A DNA stretch of 26,717 nt from Emiliania huxleyi CCMP1516 (lineage: Eukaryota), in NCBI RefSeq assembly GCF_000372725.1, contig NW_005201349.1:384723-411439 (forward strand), written 5' to 3'. Under the pieces are notes generated by a model. It was not told the DNA's origin and made no database searches. It was given only the letters and a program-made list of their open reading frames with translations. Made by a program: the position numbers and the translations under genes. Positions 2,165 through 24,555 of this stretch are shown here, piece after piece (position 1 is the stretch's first letter; every line of letters begins with the position of its first letter).

Positions 2165-4207
2165 TAGGTGTATGGTCGGCACCAAAATCAGTGGTCTCAC
2201 CGGCGGGCCCTCCTACTGCCAACCGGGCTCGAAGGCGCGGTGAACACAACCGCCTCGAGCGTACGCTCAAACACGAGCCGAGCAGGGTGGAGGGGGGGCG
2301 GCGCGGGCGAAGAGGCGGGAGAGCTGGGTCCGTGCGCTCTGCTGCTGGGGGTCGGGACCCCCCCCCCCAGCAGCAGCGCTCTGCTGCTGGGGGGGTCAGA
2401 CCCCCCCCCCTAGCAGCAGGGATGGCTTTAGATGTGCAGGGGGGTACCGAGCAATGTGCGGCCGCTCCGTCCTCCGAACCGGTTCGCAGTTGCTGCCCAA
2501 GAAGCTCGAGGCGTGGGCGAACGAGCCGCCCCTGAGGCCCCACACCAGGCGGTGCGGCCGCCAGTGCCGCCATCGTTTCCGCCACCCGCACTGCCACTTC
2601 CGCCCCCACCACTGGAACGGCTGCAGGGTCGTGGGGCCGCCCCAGCGGCTCCATACCAGGCGTTTTGGCCGCGAGGGCCGCCACCGTGCCCGCCGCCCCT
2701 GCCACCGCCTCCACCCCCGCCACCGGCGGGGCCGCCGCCGTATGGACCCGCTCGGAATAACCTGGGGGGCCCGGGACCGCCCCGCCGGAGGCTGGTGTGC
2801 CCGGGAGGAGGAGATGGGGGAGGGGAGTCGCTGCAATACGATAACGGACCCGCCGGCGAACCGGAGGGCCGTGGCCGGAGGGCCCCGGGGGGGGCTTGGG
2901 GTCAACTTTCGGAGGAGGTGAGAGTCGAGCTGACTCGGCCTCTGCGAGTGGAACCGGGCCGTGTGAGCCCACCAGGGGTAGACCCGTCGCGGCGTTGGAT
3001 AGACCGCCGTGACTCACGACAAAAGGGACCGCGCCTTCCCGAGTTTAGTGAGGAGCAGGATGAAGGGGAGGGCGAGCCGAGGACGATAGAGAGGCCACGG
3101 GCGCGGGCGCGACTCGCTGACCGGGGAGAGCCGGCCCGACCTTCCGGAGAGGAGTGGCGACGAGTGATGCCGCCGCCCTCACCCGGGGAGTCGGGCGTGG
3201 GATCGCCGGAGGCGGAGTCAACAGGATCAGGCAGAGAAGACGAGACGGCGGCGGGGCCGCAGCCGAAAAAGGCTAGGAGGGGAGGTCGGGCCCCGCGCCC
3301 GTCGCACAACTATCGGGATGCGGCCAGGAGGAAGGACCGAGAGGTGGGGGAAGACGCCCCGGAGTGAAAGTTGGGAGACCTCGAAGAGGGGCCCGGTGTG
3401 CCCAGGTGCCGGGTGTGGATGGGCGTCGAGTCCGTGTCGAGTGTTACAAGCTCCGAGTAGAGGGGGCGTTCTGCTGCTAGGGGAAACCTGGAGCGCGGAG
3501 CTAACCCTCGGAGACCCGTGTTTACTTTACAGCCCTTGCCCTGCGAACGCGCACCCCCCCTAGCTAGGGGTCAGGGCTCTCTAGCCCGTAGCCCGATCCC
3601 GATCATCCGGCCCGCTGGGTGCGCTTCTGAGCTCCCCGGCCCTGGATGTGAGGTTAATGACTGCACTCCAAGTGCTCCAAATTCATGTTTGTCTCTCTAG
3701 CACCCCCCCTAGCTAGGGGTCAGGGCTCTCTAGCCCGTAGCCCGATCCCGATCATCCGGCCCGCTGGGTGCGCTTCTGAGCTCCCCGGCCCTGGATGTGA
3801 GGTTAATGACTGCACTCCAAGTGCTCCAAGTGCTCTAGGTGTATGGTCGGCACCAAAATCAGCGGTCTCACCGGCGGGCCCTCCTACTGCCAACCGGGCT
3901 CGAAGGCGCGGTGAACACAACCGCCTCGAGCGTACGCTCAAACACGAGCCGAGCAGGGTGGAGGGGGGGCGGCGCGGGCGAAGAGGCGGGAGAGCTGGGT
4001 CCGTGCGCTCTGCTGCTGGGGGTCGGGACCCCCCCCCCCCCCCAGCAGCAGCGCTCTGCTGCTGGGGGGGTCAGCCCCCCCCCCTAGCAGCAGGGATGGC
4101 TTTAGATGTGCAGGGGGGTACCGAGCAATGTGCGGCCGCTCCGTCCTCCGAACCAGTTCGCAGTTGCTGCCCAAGAAGCTCGAGGCGTGGGCGAACGAGC
4201 CGCCCCT
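2165..4207. mobile_element. LTR-like or DIRS-like non-autonomous element: about 370-bp direct repeats (2165-2533, 3836-4207) around a Pro/Arg/Glu-rich ORF (2432-3367) and an internal duplication of about 130 bp (3551-3680, 3700-3829)
   Basis: Both copies run from TAGGTGTATGGTCGGCACCAAAATCAG to GAACGAGCCGCCCCT and differ only by a few substitutions and small indels around the poly-C/G tracts. No RT, integrase or recombinase motif and no clear TSD were seen. Confidence 0.7.
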
Positions 4208-4543: not shown

Positions 4544-7500
4544 CTACCGCCGCGCAGCCAGGCCGCTGGCACCCGCCGCCGCCGCCTCCTCCGCCGGCTC
4601 CTCGGCGAGGTCCTCCACCTCGAAGCAGGGCGAGTGGCCCGCCCCGAGCAGCCGCAGCCGCGACGCGTGGAAGGAGAGCAGCGACGGCCGGTGCCCCACC
4701 GAGACGTAGGTGATGCCGGGCACCGCCGCGAGCGCCTTTGGTGAGTACTTCTCATTGAGTCACGAATGAAAGACGTGGGCGGCTGCCGGCGCTTGCGGTC
4801 GCCTTGTACATGATCGCCTCGTTGTTGAGGTCGAGCGCCGACGTCGCCTCGTCCAGGATGGCGAGCCTTGGCTTGCTGACGAGCACGCGCGCGAAGGCGA
4901 GCCGCTGCTGCTCGCCCAAGCTGAGCTCGTCGCCCCAGTCGCGCACCGCGTCGAGCCCCTCGACACCTCGCTCCGCCAGCCGGTCGAGCTGCACCTATCC
5001 ACTCTCACTCCCCCACCCTCACCCACTCGTCGCGAGCCAGTGTTTGCCTCCCCCCCAGAGCCGGGTGAGCTGCGCCGTCGCGAGGGCGTCGAGCAAGCTC
5101 CCGTCCGTGCCGAGGCTGCTCCCCCTCGCCCACTCGTCGACAGTCCTCGGGTACACCAGCTGCTGCCTATTCACAGCTCTCTATTCACAGCTCTCCACTC
5201 GTCGACAGTCCTCGCGTACACCAGCTGCTGCCGCAGCGAGCCGAGCGTGCAGTACGGCCGCTGCGGCAGGAACATCGTGTCGGCGGTGTGCGGGCGAGCG
5301 ATGTCGCCCGAACCGCGGTCCCACAGCCCCGCGACGGCGCGCCTGTGCACCGCGGGGGACCTGTGAAAGAGGCGCCGTTCTCAGCCGCTTGTCCCGCAGC
5401 CCCGCGACGGCGCGCAGCATCGACGACTTGCCGGTGCCGGAGTTGCCCATCACGAGGAGATGCCGCCCCGGCTGCACGTCCACAGACACGTTCGAGAAGA
5501 GGCGGCGCGAGCCTACGCCCCGTGCAATCTCGGACAACCTCGGACAGCGTCGGACGTCTCTTGGACCAGCGCCCGGGGAGGAGAGGCGGCGCCGTCCGGC
5601 GTAGACAGCGAGAGCTGGCGGACGGCCAACACGCCCCCGCCCGGGACAAGCCCCCCTTCGGCGTTGCGGACGCCACCGCGCGTCGGCGCGACGACACCCT
5701 CCAGCCGCAGCTCACCCTTCCTCCTCCGGGGAGGCGGCGGGGGCGCGCCTCCGCGGCCATACAGGACCCTCTCCCAAGCGGAGGGCGCCTAATCTCGCGC
5801 AATCTCGGGTGATCTCGCGCATCTCGGCCGATCTCGGGTGGTCTCTCCGCCGCGGAGGGCGCCTCGCCCCCCCCCGCAGCGGTCTGCGCCGCGGCGCCCG
5901 CCTCCGGTCCTGCGGGCGGGCCTCTGCGGCCGAACCTGGCGGCGAAGGGTCCGAGAAGGGTCCGAGAAGAACCCGAGGGGAGGGCGGCAGGGCGGGGCCT
6001 GCTGCGGCCGTACCGAAGCGCGTGCCAGAGGGAGGGGGTGCCTCCGCCCGCCTGTCCACAGCCTGAAGGTGTGAAGAGACGCCGCTCGCAGCGTGCCGCA
6101 GGGAGGGGGATGCCACGCGGCCGCCTCGGCCGAGGCCGCTGCTTCGGCCAGCTGGAAAGTGGCTGGCGAGGAGGAGGAGGAGGAGGGGCCCTGGTACGCC
6201 TCCATGCGGTCCACGAAGGTGGCGAGGCGGCCGAGGCCGGCCGAGAAGGAGGAGAGGCCTAGAAAAGGAAGGAGGCGTCCGGAAAAAGAAAAGCAGAGGT
6301 GCGCGCTGCGCGAGGCGGAGGAGCGGTCCCTCGAACTGGTTGACGATGATGGAGAGGTCTCCGAGTACGTGGTTGAAGGCGCCTGAGTTGAAGTCACCAG
6401 CTCACTTCGACATGAGGGAGAGGTCGCCGAGGAGCGTGGCTGAAGGCGCCCGTCGACTGGGTGATCACGCCGAGCTCGACGGAGCCGGCAAAGTAGAGCG
6501 GCGACACGACGAGCACGGGCAGGATTTGGATCAGGTACGAGTACCCCACCGTGAAGAACTCGAGGTTGCGCTGCGTGCCTTCAGTACTCAGCCGCTTGAC
6601 TTAACCAACTAGTCAATGAGTCAAGAACTCGAGGCTGCGCCGCGTGCCGAGGATCGCACGCTTGTTCTCGACGGCGCCGCCCAGTCGCGAGACTACCTCC
6701 TCCTCCTCCTGCGCCTCTCCGCGGTAGAAAGCGATCGACTCCGCATTCTCGCGCAGCCGCACGAGCGAGTAGCGCAGGTTCGCCTGCACTCTCCGGCACC
6801 CGTGCGCACTCGCGGACCATCTCCCGCCATCTCGGCAGACATCTCGCGCAATCTCGGGCTCGCCTCCCGCAGGAGCTGCTCGGCGTTTTGCCCGACGAGC
6901 GCCTTGCCGAGCTTGACGGTGGTCAGAGTGCCGACACCTAGGAGTGACTCACGAGTGACCGAATGGGCCCTGCCCCAGCCTGACGGCCGCCAGAGTCCCG
7001 ACGCCGGCGTAGACAAAGATGGCGTAGAAGAGGTTGGGGTAGATGGAGTAGAGGATGCCGGAAAAGGAGACGAGATCGATTGCGGCGGTCATCAGCGTGA
7101 TGAAGAAGTCGAGTGACACCTTGGACGCACCACGTGAGGAAGAGTGAGACATAGCACAGAAGAGAAGAGACACACAGTGGCGACGACGGCGAGGTGACCA
7201 CCTTGGTGAAGGCCTGCACGTCCTCGGTCAGCCGCTGGTCCGGGTTGTCGATCTCGGGGTCGATCTCAAGCTTGTAGTACGCCTGCACCGGAGGCAAGGC
7301 TCGAGCGAGGGGAGGGAGGGAGGGGGGCGCCTCGAGTGGTCTCGAGCTTGCGGCGCGCCTTGTCGGTGCAGTACTGCCGAGACAGCTCCGTGGTCATCCA
7401 CTCCCGCCTAGGGGAAGGTTCCGAGAAGGTGCCTGGAGGACGGGGTGCGACACCGGCATTCGCCTCGCGCGCCAGTTGAGGGCGAGGCGCTGGCGCTGGA

Positions 7501-7933
7501 ACTTGTAGAGGACAGTGAGCGGCGTCGCCACGGCGAGCCCGACGGCGTAGTTGGACGTCTTCTCCAGGAAGAGCGCCTGGTCCTTTGCTGAGAGCGCCGA
7601 GTAGAAGTCGCGGCCGACGTACGAAAAGATGACCGAGATGCCGCTGTTGATGAGGACGAGGAGCAGCATCAGACCAAAGTTCAGCTTCGCGCCCTCCGCG
7701 TTCGAAAAGTAGGGCACGGCCAGCCGCCAGAAGAGGCGCAGCCGCTCCTGGACTGTATCCTCACGTGCTGGTGCCGCGTGCTCCTCGCGCCGCTCCGTCG
7801 CCACCGGCTCGGAGCAGCGCGGCTGAGCCAAGGCATGGTGCGGGCGGGAGACGAGAGGCTGTCTGCTGAGGGTTAGGCTCGCGCCCGGCGAAACGCAGAG
7901 AAGCGCGATCGCAAAGGCACCGGATCGGGGCAT
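4544..7933 (-). CDS. ABCD-subfamily half ABC transporter (ABC_membrane_2 + NBD; plastid ABCD2/YddA-like), 14 or more exons
   Basis: The spliced model gives IDNPDQRLTED, the EAA region EANLRYSLVRLRENAESIAFYRG, Walker A GNSGTGKS, FLPQRPY, signature LSLGEQQRLAFAR, Walker B ILDEATSALD and SVGHR; the N-terminus is signal-like. Frame-consistent introns: 7408-7472, 7283-7358, 7120-7201, 6938-7004, 6784-6863, 6579-6647, 6383-6449, 6259-6328, 5343-5415, 5167-5231, 4995-5075, 4736-4802. Linker exons between about 5520 and 6100 are unresolved. Confidence 0.9.
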
Positions 7934-17355: not shown

Positions 17356-18929
17356 ATGAGCTGCGTCATCTGCCTCGTAGATTTTCCTGCGGGCGCGGCC
17401 AACCTGGTTTGTGGACCTCCCGCACCTTACCCTTACAGGCCACCATAAGGGACCCCGTTGTCCGTTTGACATCAGACTTTTTTTGAGTTGGAGGTAATAA
17501 TTAAAAGGATTGCACTGTCCCAAAGAACTGATTCATTCATTTCACCCTCACATAGTAACAATACCTCAAAGTTGAAAACCTCCAAAATAGGCCGTCAGGA
17601 CTCTGTCAGGACTCCGTCAGGACTCTGTCAGGACTCTGTCAGGACTCCGCCAGGACTCCGCCAGGACAACCACTGCCCCCCCGCTGTGAACAGAGCCCTT
17701 AGCTAGAGAGTAGGGAGGGGTGTACAGTCGAGTTACTCCCGAGGGCAGGGACGGCCCTCCACTGAGGGAAAGGGCGCAACGGGGACGGTATGCTCACAAC
17801 CCAGCCACGCAGCTCTTTGCTCGCGTACAGCCAACGAGTTTGCTGGTCCACAGGCAGGCCAGGCCGTGAGCGTGGGCCGGTCGGGCCTGATCCTGCGGTG
17901 AGCACTGGAGGGCTATGCGGCTCGCTCCGTCAGCCGACTTGCGCTGTCGAGCGGTCGAGCGCTTCGGGTTGGACCCGCGGGAGGGTCCCTGCGCGGCTGA
18001 CATGGCCAGCCAAGCCGTGTGCGCTGCCGTGGGCGCTGTCGTGGGTGCTGCCGTGGGTGCTGCCGTGGGCGCTGCTGTGGGCGCTGCCGTGGGCGCTGCC
18101 TCGGTCAGCAGTCGGTCAGCAGTCGGTCAGCAGTCGGTCCGCTGCTCGGCGCTGGCCTGCAGGCCGCCGGTGGCAAATCGGGGGGGCGCGGGCCATGGAC
18201 GTCGTGGCCGAGCTTTGCTGCCTTCTTGCACGTTGCCGGCTGTAACGTTGCCTGCACCATGGCCGCGCCTCTCTTGCTTGTGCGCTTTCATGGTCGAGCC
18301 GAGTGGCGCGAGAGTGAGCGTGATTTCTTTTGTCTGTCTGGACTCTAAGTTTCTGTCAGGACTCTCAAGTTTCTGTCAGGACTCTCAAGTTTGCTTGTCA
18401 GGACTCTCAAGTTTGCTTGTCAGGACTCTCAAGTTTGCGTCAGGACTGCCCCATCAGGACGATTCCGCAGAGGGCGCGCACGGTCGAAAGGGGGGCTGGG
18501 CGTCTATCATTCACTGCTGGGGGGGAGGGGAAGGAGGGTTGCAGTGAAGGAAGGTGGAGGTCTCGTCGGAGGCACTTGTGAGCACTGTGAAGACCGTGCG
18601 CCGTCAGGACCCCGCCAGGACTCTGTCAGGACTCTGTCAGGACTCTGTCAGGACTCTGTCAGGACTCTGTCAGGACTGTCAGGACAGGTGCGGGAGGTCC
18701 ACAAACCAGGTTGGCCACCAAGCTGTGCTGCGCCAGTGACCACGCAATCTGCGGTGACTGCTTTGGGCCCTACCTGCTGACGAATGCGGACAAGCTGGGC
18801 AAGACCGACCTCCTCGCGTCCAAGGCGGAGGCGGCGGAGATCACAGGGGACGGAAGTCGGAACGCTCACCGAGCGCCTGGCCGGGTTTGGGAGTTATGCT
18901 TAGGCACCCACCCTGATGGGAAGCAGTGA
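17356..18929 (+). pseudogene. RING-finger-like ORF split by the TIR element (17356-17400 joined to 18717-18929)
   Basis: Removing the element and one GGCC gives the in-frame MSCVICLVDFPAGAA|TKLCCASDHAICGDCFGPYLLTNADKL (CxxC...CxxxHxxCxxC). The final Cys pair is not evident. Confidence 0.7.
17401..18712. mobile_element. 1312-bp non-autonomous DNA transposon with perfect 27-bp TIRs and a GGCC target duplication
   Basis: AACCTGGTTTGTGGACCTCCCGCACCT (17401-17427) / AGGTGCGGGAGGTCCACAAACCAGGTT (18686-18712), with GGCC on both flanks. Internal TCAGGACTC arrays at about 17595-17667, 18340-18447 and 18604-18685, plus GCCGTGGGCGCT and TCGGTCAGCAG repeats. No transposase seen. Confidence 0.9.
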
Positions 18930-21145: not shown

Positions 21146-23142
21146 ATGCTCGACGACCTCCTCCAAGGGCGAGATCTCGACAGCCTCACAGACGACGAGA
21201 AGATGGCCGTCCTCGTGAAGGCTGGCCTCATGACCTCCGACTCGCCGGCGGCGGCCGCCGCGCCAGCACCGCAGCAGGTGGCTGCTGCGGCAGACGACGA
21301 GGACCCGCCTCGGACGGAGGCGGAGCGGCTCGCGTACCTCCGCTCCCGCGGCGTCGAGGTTGAGCTCGCCGAGGAGCGTCAGTCCCACCCTCCGCCGGCT
21401 GCCGGCGGCGCCGGCCGCGCCTTCACCTTTGTGCGCATTCCGGCCGAGCCGACGGTCGCTGTGTCGCTCGAGTCGGCGGCCGCGCCGTCCGGCGGCGGGG
21501 ACGTGCTCCCCGGCCTGCTGGCGCCGCGCTTCGCCGACGACGGCGTGATGGACGACGCGACCGTCGCGCGCGAGACGGCGGGCCGCCTGCGCAACATGGT
21601 GGCGGGTGGCGCGCCCGGCGCTGCGGAGGCGTTGCGCGCGCCGTCGGCGGAGACGGTGCGAGGAGCCTAGAAGCTCGGGGGATCCGTGTGCTCGAAGTGG
21701 CACTCGGAGAGGACGCGTAGACTCAGCTGTGCTGGAGCCGTCTCCCGCCGCACACTCGTACAGTCCGCCGTGGTGCCTCCCCCGCCCGGCTTCGAGTGCA
21801 CGGCTCGAGAGACAGCGTCGCGTGACACGGCGATAGGTGCAGAAGCTGGCTGCCGGCGGCGCCTGCGAGGCGTACCCCCTCGCTCAGCCGAGCGCCGCCA
21901 ACGGCTGGGTCGGCGTCCGCCTCTACATCGACGAGGAGATACGGGGAGATACGGGGAGATACGGGGAGATACGGGGAGATATGGGGAGATAGGGGGAGAT
22001 ACGGGGAGATATGGGGAGATACGGGGAGAAACGGGGAGATATGGGTCGCGTCCGCCTCTATGTCGACGAGGCCGGCACACGCACGCAACGCCATGCACAC
22101 CACACACATACCACACCCACACCACACCCACACCACACGCACACGCACACGCACGCACACACACACAAACACACACACACACACACACACACACAACACA
22201 CACACACACACCGCTCACCCACGCGCGCCGGGCCTTGCACTTTGAAGGTCGTGCCAGCTCCTGTCGTCTAGACGCGGAGTCGCGAGGGATAGCCCTGGCC
22301 CTTGCCCCACCACCTCGTGCGTGCGGAGAAGTTTACCTCGCCTCACCTCCCCTTAGGTCGGCGCGCTGCGCTCGCGGCCGCGCAACGCTAGAGCCGAGGT
22401 GCATATCTCCCCATATCTCCCCATATCTCCCCATGTCTCCCCATGTCTCCCCATATCTCCCCATGTCTGACGCGCAACGAAGAGCTGAGGTGCATATCTC
22501 CCCATATCTCCCCATATCTCCCCATATCCGACGCGCAACGCTAGAGCCGAGGTGCCCGCCGCCAAGGACAGACCAGGGCTGACCTCTTCCTGGCGCACAC
22601 ACGCTCCTGGCGCACACGCCCCCTGGCGCACACGAGCCCTGCGCCGCCGTAGGCGCTCGCTCTCGCCGCCGGGCTGAGCGGGCGGGCGATGCACGGTCGA
22701 CCTGGCGACCCGTACTCAACAGTGTGAGTCCTCAGTCACCAATCAGTAGGCTGGCGATCCACGGCGACGTGTACGTGTCTCGGTGCGCGCGGCGCGAGGG
22801 CGGCGGCGGAGGCGAGGGCGACGCGTCGACTGCGTCTCCTCTCACTGCTCCCGGGCCCAGAGGCTGCTGTTGTGAGTTCTCAAGGCGAGGCCAACGTCGA
22901 CTTTGGGCTCGAAGAGCTGGCGCCGGACTCGGCGTGGGCGGCCGCGGCGCGGAGGGAGAACGGGGCGGCGGCGGCGGCACACGGCGGCGGCGACCACTTT
23001 GCGGGCGGCGACAGCGGCAGCTATACGAGACGCCGTCCCACACCTCTCTGCTGCCGTGTGCTGACGCGCTTTGGTTCTCGCAGGCAGCTACGCGTGGAGC
23101 CAGACGGAGGAGGAGGTCGAGGTTCGCGTGCACACGCACGCA

Positions 23143-23226
<84 letters not shown>

Positions 23227-23838
23227 CACACACTGATCACCCACGCGCACCGGGCCTTGCACTGTTCATGCCGTGGGCCCCCTGTCCGTTAGACGTGGAG
23301 TCGCGAGGGGCTGCCTCCCCCCCTGCACCACCACCTCGTGTGCGCGGGAGGTCAGTCAGCTGGCCTTTAGGTCTGCGTGCGCGGAGCGCCGTCCGGGCGC
23401 GGCGCCGCCAAGTGCGTGGGCGTGGCGACCGGCCGCCGAGTGGCGCGGGCAGCGTCGCTTCACACCTGCAGCCGTGAACAGGCGCGTGGGCGTGGCGTAC
23501 GGCCGCGGCCGTTCCTTGCGCGTCTGCTTCGACGGAAAGGTTGCGGTGGAGCTGCCGGAGCTCTTCGACGCGGTGGCCTCGCCTTAGCCGAAATGAGCCG
23601 AGATGCGGCGAGATGCGGCGAGATTGGGAGGTGCGGGAGCTCTCCGCTGCGGCGTGCTTTGTCGGCGGCGCGGTGCCAGTTGGGTGAACGGCGGCTGTTC
23701 ACAGCTGGTCCGTGCGATGCACAGGTGGTGCCGGATGGGTGCGCGTGGACGCTCGAGTCCGGGGTCCTCGCGCTGACGCTCGAGAAGGCGGACGCGAGGC
23801 CGTGGGCGACGCTCGCCCTCGAGCTCACAAAGGCGTAG
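21146..23838 (+). CDS. Multi-exon protein with a C-terminal CS (NudC/p23-like) domain
   Basis: Exon pieces: YLRSRGVEVE, GVRLYIDE|VGALRSRPRNARAE, AIHGDVYVSR, NVDFGLEELAPDSAW; CS domain YAWSQTEEEVE|VCVRG...LFDA|VVPDGCAWTLESGVLALTLEKADARPWATL-stop (TAG 23836-23838). Some junctions are unresolved. Confidence 0.75.
21935..22045. repeat. Intronic 10-bp minisatellite GGGGAGATAC; reverse-orientation copies (ATCTCCCCAT) at about 22403-22528
   Basis: Directly visible tandem decamers. Confidence 0.9.
22076..22356 (+). repeat. (CA)n microsatellite plus about 140-bp intronic repeat, copy 1
   Basis: TCACCCACGCGCGCCGGGCCTTGCAC...TAGACGCGGAGTCGCGAGGG...CACCACCTCGTG...TTAG, homologous to 23131-23370. Confidence 0.8.
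23131..23370 (+). repeat. (CA)n microsatellite plus about 140-bp intronic repeat, copy 2
   Basis: TCACCCACGCGCACCGGGCCTTGCAC...TAGACGTGGAGTCGCGAGGG...CACCACCTCGTG...TTAG. Confidence 0.8.
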
Positions 23839-24555
23839 GAGGGGGCTGAAATGCGCTTCCGCTGCTGACGAGGTACAATATTCGGAACGCCGGATTGCGA
23901 AATTACTCTCATCCGTGAGTTGTGAACACAGTGAACAGACGCACTTGCAATCGGGGCAAGTACCCAAATCCGCTAGGTTGGGCGTGCTTCACCCGCACCG
24001 CCTCACCCACCGTGCCACGAGAGTAGATTGAAATTCACGTGCCACGGCCCACGCGCTTTTTTGTTTTTGTGTTTTTTGAGAAAAAGAATTTTACCACGCT
24101 CAATACCAACATCTGACACTATCCTCGAGAGTCCATCCCCTCGAGAGTCCATCCCACTAACGGCAAACCCGCACGAGAAACTAATGAAAACTGGCGCCGA
24201 CCCGCTAGGAGGGTCGGCATGGGGTGCGGTGGGCAGGATCTGCGCCACTTGGGCAGTGGATCTGAGCTGGGGGCGATTTTTGAGCTAAACCCCTCCCTTG
24301 TGCCTCCGTTTCGTGGGCACGCGCGCCGGGGCGCCGTATGCTCGCCCTTGATCGTATCAAGACGCCCCAGGGCAGTGGGGTCGTCTCCAAGGGACGGTGG
24401 GGGCACCAGCGGCCTCACACCTGCACGAGTCAGCACTCAGCAGGCGCAGCGACCGTACCTCAATAGTACATAAAGAGCAGGACCACTCCTCTGACAAAGT
24501 GCCTCTGATTGACCGTCGGCCCAGTCCTCTCCGAAGTGATTGAGCTGCTCCGTCG

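Follow-up and report, generated by a model that had tools for sequence, protein, structure and literature searches.

The window analysed here, a 26,717-nucleotide stretch of Emiliania huxleyi CCMP1516 DNA, contains an ABCD-type half transporter gene, defined by its spliced open reading frame and by the near-identical public models P0040 and P0058, and a CS-domain gene, placed by spliced alignment to the E. huxleyi proteins P0061 and P0062 and their homologue P0064 (Table 1). ABC_membrane_2 and ABC_tran domains are found on P0040, and exon 1 of the transporter gene matches two Emiliania huxleyi models at 98-100% in addition to many algal orthologues. Intron density contrasts sharply between neighbours: an apparently intronless BTB/BACK-like gene, recognised by eye, lies on the minus strand at 30-1860, next to the transporter gene with its 16 introns. 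Elsewhere in the window, a direct repeat of ~370 nt (2160-2530 and 3835-4205, ~1.7 kb apart) encloses a 130-nt tandem repeat at 3551-3829 and looks, by eye, like an LTR-type remnant, and 11-mer arrays (GTCAGGACTCT) at 17583-17670 and 18354-18679 flank a 12-mer array where no gene was mapped.

Table 1. Genes and introns mapped in the window, with the copy of the following exon ("echo") found at the start of each intron.
Feature	Position	Strand	Splice sites, length	Echo	Other observations
ABCD-type half transporter gene	4544..7933	-			17 exons, 740 aa
Intron 1	7408..7472	-	GC-AG, 65 nt	not significant	CCTTCTCGGA-type filler in common with intron 10; RNA joint
Intron 2	7283..7358	-	GC-AG, 76 nt	14/19	RNA joint
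Intron 3	7120..7201	-	GT-AG, 82 nt	weak, gapped	position in common with L022; RNA joint
Intron 4	6938..7004	-	GC-AG, 67 nt	~38 nt	echo taken as coding by public gene models; RNA joint
Intron 5	6784..6863	-	GC-AG, 80 nt	7 nt only	CCGAGAT-type filler; position in common with L015 and L022; RNA joint
Intron 6	6579..6647	-	GC-AG, 69 nt	23/25	RNA joint
Intron 7	6383..6449	-	GC-AG, 67 nt	~41 nt	RNA joint
Intron 8	6259..6328	-	GA-AG, 70 nt	gapped	RNA joint
Intron 9	6052..6124	-	GC-AG, 73 nt	~34 nt	filler homologous with intron 23412-23481 up to acceptor; RNA joint
Intron 10	5936..6013	-	GT-AG, 78 nt	~24 nt	RNA joint
Intron 11	5789..5862	-	GC-AG, 74 nt	17/20	CCGAGAT-type filler; RNA joint
Intron 12	5513..5592	-	GC-AG, 80 nt	14/15, 4-nt offset	RNA joint
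Intron 13	5343..5415	-	GC-AG, 73 nt	24/25	filler related to intron 23573-23724; RNA joint
Intron 14	5167..5231	-	GC-AG, 65 nt	36/37	echo followed by a 14-nt unit x2 ending in acceptor; RNA joint
Intron 15	4995..5075	-	GC-AG, 81 nt	14/20	RNA joint
Intron 16	4736..4802	-	GC-AG, 67 nt	gapped (p=0.02)	RNA joint
CS-domain gene	21146..23840	+		5' echo	9 introns
Compound introns of CS-domain gene	21936-22356, 22399-22652	+		mirror form	10-mer arrays, then copies of the upstream exon end

The introns of the transporter gene are short (65-82 nt), and removing all 16 yields a 740-aa open reading frame from 7933 to 4544. Their donors are GC in 13 cases, GT in two and GA in one, the acceptors are AG, and splicing restores the reading frame. 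RNA contigs (X10, X11, X12 and X13) carry every one of the 16 splice joints, 15 of them seen in at least two studies when X10 and X11 are counted as one study; the joint of 6938-7004 is carried by X13 only, X11 having matching loose ends. This bears out from RNA the splicing that an earlier note had read from the letters alone, with its count of 12 introns in this gene raised to 16. None of the joints was listed in four DNA or unknown-type runs (X1, X7, X8 and X9), which carry the introns; a single X8 contig covers 5100-7060, and metagenome contig L031 contains all 16 introns with allelic differences, the DNA-side evidence consisting of short-read contigs. Runs X16-X19 had no shared words and were left out. 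Since RNA resolves each joint only up to the repeat described below (a slide of 2-19 nt), cuts were placed by the G[CTA]..AG rule. Intron spacing, at 111-273 nt (mean 178), is too variable for a claim of nucleosome phasing.

In most of the 16 introns confirmed by RNA, the sequence opens with a decayed copy of the following exon. We scored this echo by junction-anchored alignment of the intron's first 40 nt to the exon, with 240 mismatched intron-exon pairs as the null. The mean score against an intron's own next exon was 26.4, compared with 5.5 for the mismatched pairs (maximum 20), and the observed sum was reached in 0 of 200,000 permutations (p<5e-6). The own next exon ranked top for 12 of the 16 introns, and 13 were individually significant (p<0.05) when set against 151 40-nt stretches of the transporter CDS that start with GC or GT, the exceptions in this comparison being 7408-7472 (p=0.41), 6784-6863 (p=0.10) and 7120-7201 (p=0.053). 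The proposal that most of these introns echo their next exon thus stands against both shuffled pairs and a GC-matched null. The identities first quoted for introns 14, 13 and 6 (36/37, 24/25 and 23/25) proved exact, and weaker echoes suggested at 6383-6449, 6938-7004, 7283-7358 and 4995-5075 reached significance, while that at 7120-7201 fell just short of it. Weak versions claimed for BCD1, DUF1800-type and extensin introns could not be confirmed, a noisy ab initio scan having listed no BCD1 or DUF1800-type introns.

The echo has a direction and a gradient. Its repeat length varies from 7 to 41 nt among the transporter introns, and ungapped identity declines from 0.65 at positions 4-10 to 0.34 at positions 31-40, where the background is ~0.28. 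In these 16 introns the 3' ends show no likeness to the upstream exon (3.1, against 3.2 for mismatched pairs). Echo mismatches have no codon-position bias (8/9/6), as expected if decay falls on the intron copy, and orthologues retain the residues of the exon rather than those of the echo. Errors of assembly or mapping, or resemblance by chance in GC-rich DNA, are hardly credible as sources of these repeats. The near-identical repeat of intron 14 does break some short-read contigs, but echoes occur in four independent runs and in L031 and L032 with allelic variation, are spliced out of RNA, and lie far above two GC-matched nulls. Echoes also mislead gene finders: P0040 and P0058 translate echo sequence into protein at introns 4 and 14, and miss linker exons.

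The CS-domain gene was said to show the same pattern, and it does: its nine introns, mapped from proteins, echo their own next exons (exact permutation p=5e-5), most strongly at 22682-22749, 22812-22884, 23017-23083 and 23412-23481. A direct repeat of the adjacent exon at the intron's far end therefore exceeds background in both genes. The two compound introns consist of stacked units at one position: an array closes with a copy of the last bases of the upstream exon, AG included, and a second unit follows; recursive splicing is possible there. The CA-rich introns 22072-22356 and 23122-23370 are mutually homologous and form a candidate intron family. Intron 22812-22884 is spliced in P0062 and read through in P0061, consistent with the intron retention reported for E. 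huxleyi.

The anatomy of these introns is as follows: copy 1 starts at the donor, a filler ends in the acceptor AG, and copy 2 opens the next exon, so that splicing takes out copy 1 and the filler and restores the reading frame exactly. The next exon begins with GC or GT in 25 of 25 cases (16 in the transporter gene and nine in the CS-domain gene), although only 17.6% of positions in the transporter CDS would provide such a start, and in 19 of the 23 GC/GT cases the donor has the dinucleotide that also opens the next exon (Fisher p=0.011). Only six of the 16 transporter introns follow an exon with a terminal AG. Taken together, the GC/GT start of all 16 next exons and the scarcity of upstream AG indicate that the copy gives the donor and the filler gives the acceptor. 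GC is three times as common as GT in the transporter CDS, so donors copied from coding sequence should be mostly GC, matching the 56-64% of GC donors in E. huxleyi, which the available text of their report ascribes to GC content alone (PMC4028052).

Fillers fall into families common to different introns and genes, some members being alike right up to the acceptor (600 pair-orientations tested). The likeness is only partial, ~75-85% over 15-40 nt among the 25 introns, with one longer pair, and at least five unrelated filler types occur within the transporter gene. The 16 transporter fillers share neither an end nor a terminal inverted repeat, and TTAGGG/CCCTAA arrays are absent from the window's introns. 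Other DNA contigs match filler stretches and then diverge. Hairpin fillers were ruled out, with z below -2 in only one of the 16 transporter fillers.

These features bear on the Rogers model, in which plain tandem duplication over an AG|GY site makes the intron and its 3' half decays later. The six upstream AGs are what such a duplication would leave, and the repeated unit inside 22399-22652 spans AG|GTGC. However, 10 of the 16 upstream exons have no AG at their end, the introns' 3' half is unlike the upstream exon and belongs to filler families shared between genes, and the youngest echoes stop abruptly where the filler starts. We regard the model as largely refuted for the transporter gene and as very improbable overall.

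To place the introns in time, we mapped their positions in related loci. Of 42 such loci, 33 were mapped with a custom spliced aligner (introns predicted) for the position count, leaving out near-duplicates (L009, L024, L028, L029 and L040), the E. huxleyi alleles L031 and L032, and the distant partial loci L041 and L042; more near-duplicates remain among the 33, and some of their short contigs without introns may be transcripts. We disregarded introns that the aligner called in the N-terminus, linker and C-terminus, which are unconserved; the three linker introns of the window lie outside the comparison, and the donor of an L013 intron was moved by hand. Scans for host DNA in viral contigs gave nothing useful, and ten loci at 35-46% GC, unlike E. 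huxleyi, were left out. Over the 13 alignable positions of the transporter gene, 3 of 349 position-by-locus comparisons were shared, and 11 positions were absent from every covering locus. The intron positions are thus lineage-specific, the outcome that the earlier note had named as support for gain. Each time a position was shared, a close relative of the sharing locus was without the intron, so parallel gain is likely. No introns lie in the conserved parts of the long contigs L003 and L011. On a quick tree, the loci nearest to the E. huxleyi gene are ~0.5 changes per site away; no close intron-lacking relative is among the related loci, only distant ones lack the 16 window introns, and all E. 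huxleyi haplotypes seen carry them. Therefore, intron birth can be read directly in the relatives, and we infer it for the 16 window introns.

The lineage-specific positions also speak to a second alternative, in which the 5' part of old introns is repeatedly replaced by repair on spliced cDNA, copying the start of the next exon. Such overwriting would equally produce a one-sided echo, two intron positions are held in common with L022, and exon polymorphism is enriched at echo-matched exon starts: between the window and L031, exons differ at 9 of 480 sites in their first 30 nt and at 9 of 1705 elsewhere (p=0.008, for an interval chosen post hoc). This clustering is a weak hint that occasional exchange between the copies is possible. 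On the other hand, most positions are not old, every next exon would have needed its GC/GT start beforehand, and where positions are shared, the echoes are among the weakest and the introns are missing from L002, close kin of L022. In the few haplotypes available, moreover, echo and exon drift independently: at intron 7, two bases of the window exon depart from the echo while the L031 exon agrees with it there, and at intron 14, an exon variant of X8, X9 and L031 is missing from their echoes. A suspected parallel change in the echo and exon of intron 14 vanished with more haplotypes. Ongoing overwriting, one of the two processes first envisaged for these introns, is disfavoured by exon changes that were not copied into the echo of the same haplotype, and we consider it improbable. 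The other, recurring birth by duplication, holds as far as birth is linked to duplication, as lineage-specific positions and the empty sites of relatives indicate, and fails as regards plain tandem duplication over AG|GT as the main route.

Those empty sites come from related algae. Of 36 introns in related loci, 17 have an echo above the 99th percentile at one end, 5' or 3', and in no intron do both ends pass it; such introns number 13 of 21 in the clade with Prymnesium and E. huxleyi, 4 of 8 in the Aureococcus clade (7-9 exact bases) and 0 of 7 in distant loci. Predicted introns of the haptophyte loci L017, L022, L035 and L037 are telomere-repeat arrays, in both polarities, set between near-perfect repeats of 14-25 nt. 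TTAGGG/CCCTAA array introns with long direct repeats, missing from close relatives, lie at L035 1071-1306, L037 1075-2188, L017 972-1632, L018 644-1518 and L022 4063-4872. L017 and L037, with CDS 92.6% identical, lack each other's echo-bearing introns, the only intron common to their group has no echo, and L011 and L012 are without any of the L017/L037 introns; L002 likewise lacks all three L022 introns. Where relatives are 92-93% identical, the introns that one of them lacks are telomere-repeat arrays, and introns of L017, L037, L022 and L015 that are absent from a close relative are represented there by a single repeat copy at the empty site. In mixed arrays the G-strand precedes the C-strand in 4 of 4 units, a small sample, which is the order expected from repeat addition at both broken ends. 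A strict rule tying telomere strand to echo side fails, since the C-strand array L017 1485-1632 has an echo of the upstream type. Six introns in L007 9642-12604 (also in L008 and L010) contain another 10-mer-like repeat of the TGATTGCCTC type, judged by eye, and three of these have 5' or 3' echoes; filler motifs seem to be lineage-specific.

Outside the haptophytes, Aureococcus-like introners with target repeats of 7-9 nt were found at L014 2461-2671, L015 3362-3562 and L015 4297-4471; two introners of L015 are absent from L014, whose CDS is 99.3% identical, and one of them sits at the position of window intron 5. It is conceivable that the window's introns, too, stem from a selfish element rather than from host repair, with short introner-like or retro-copied pieces bearing an acceptor inserting and a long variable target-site duplication giving the donor. 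Target-primed reverse transcription typically leaves long variable duplications, and those seen here fit it. Introners that take their 5' splice site from a target-site duplication are reportedly the subject of Huff 2016. Several fillers are alike right up to the acceptor (intron 9 and 23412-23481, intron 13 and 23573-23724, and the two CA-rich CS-domain introns), the pelagophyte loci L014 and L015 do contain introns of this kind, and introners whose donor comes from a duplication are known (bioRxiv 10.1101/2022.06.06.494994). Nevertheless, the fillers of a single gene comprise several unrelated types with no shared ends, members of a filler family resemble each other only partially, and in the relatives the filler is a plain telomere array with ordered strands. 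A DNA-transposon-type introner was rejected, as repeat lengths are not fixed and 15 of 16 fillers lack a hairpin signal. We consider a mobile element unlikely, if less so than overwriting from cDNA.

In our view, the introns were probably born by insertions that duplicated a long stretch of the target, likely at a break with staggered ends. A short piece of repeat DNA would have been inserted into coding sequence, introns arising one by one, and 20-40 bases at the insertion site would have been duplicated. Repair of a staggered double-strand break is the probable occasion: filling in the break would give the duplication, a filler would be added, and the result would be copy 1, filler and copy 2. 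Survivors would be those insertions whose duplicated stretch begins with GC or GT, or contains AG, because only these would splice cleanly; such a filter would leave all next exons with a GC/GT start and give mostly GC donors in GC-rich E. huxleyi. Copy 1 would then decay neutrally, and the spread of identities would reflect age. To judge from the relatives, the filler may be added by a repeat-adding or templated repair step, being the telomere repeat itself in several other haptophytes and, putatively, one of several genome-wide 10-40-nt families in E. huxleyi. The staggered break and the repair enzyme are both putative. Speaking against break repair, the E. huxleyi fillers are not telomere repeats and have no hairpin signal, and repeats of 20-40 nt exceed the 4-12 bp of Daphnia break repair.

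Repair of staggered double-strand breaks in Daphnia pulex left such short repeats in 33 cases among 90 new introns (PMC4202315, PMC3443670), and the available parts of these papers, as of those cited below, allow a comparison. The introns described here resemble the Daphnia ones in being insertions whose flanks carry a direct repeat of the neighbouring exon's end, spliced precisely and located at new positions, but differ in the length of the repeat (~15-41 nt), its occurrence in 13 of the 16 introns of a gene, the supply of the whole donor, and the repeat filler. The introners of Symbiodinium and Aureococcus likewise derive their 5' splice site from a target-site duplication (bioRxiv 10.1101/2022.06.06.494994, PMC12130899), with the donor coming from the duplicated target and the acceptor from the insert; as described, they have fixed 4-8 bp duplications, near-identical families and often terminal inverted repeats, in contrast to the long variable repeats and mixed low-identity fillers seen here. 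The tandem genomic duplication model also has an intron partly copied from the neighbouring exon, yet has a duplicated AGGT provide both splice sites and involves no filler, whereas here the acceptor usually comes from the filler (PMC3443670). Interstitial telomeric sequences arise at breaks, sometimes with target duplication (6 of 130 rodent and 4 of 25 primate loci), and this telomeric insertion matches the introns of L017, L022, L035 and L037, although the available portions of that paper describe no making of introns (PMC2246262), and the E. huxleyi fillers are of another kind. In Calcidiscus, interstitial telomeric tracts are pervasive and, in the text available, not tied to introns (PMC13518057). 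Most dinoflagellate introns have a locus-specific repeat at both ends that is present once in the mRNA; at 2-11 bp and centred on AG|G, it differs from the E. huxleyi echoes, which are far longer, decayed and one-sided (PMC5032977). Repeats of 4-30 bp near splice sites occur across taxa (PMC11782384), and most gained introns are without a readable source (PMC3443670, PMC4202315).

In the full-text literature, mostly open papers in their main text and including the available parts of PMC12480563, PMC11347835, PMC8379373 and bioRxiv 10.1101/2024.05.26.595999, we came across neither pervasive long echoes for E. huxleyi nor haptophyte introns made of telomere arrays. The repeat-flanked intron gain described here for one gene family and one gene is long, pervasive and one-sided, and is apparently an unreported variant with a clean counterpart in related algae. 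It is tempting, if speculative, to think of a standing intron factory in haptophytes, in which broken coding DNA is healed by repeats added to its ends, by telomerase in some lineages and by a telomerase-like or templated step in E. huxleyi, and rejoined between duplications of 20-40 bases, so that most introns and the majority of GC donors would be recent products of it. We hold this broader picture to be doubtful, distinctly less probable than the insertion process itself.

How new introns originate has long been an open question, and in these algae the answer may still be legible. Since nearly every intron of one gene keeps a footprint that decays like a clock, the rate of gain, the choice of sites and the source of the inserted DNA could be measured from public genomes. 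Intron birth with target duplication would explain the prevalence of GC donors in E. huxleyi. The echo also offers a mechanism for the missing intron conservation in the lineage, where the available text of Csuros 2011 reports no detectable conservation of introns between E. huxleyi and other eukaryotes (PMC3174169).
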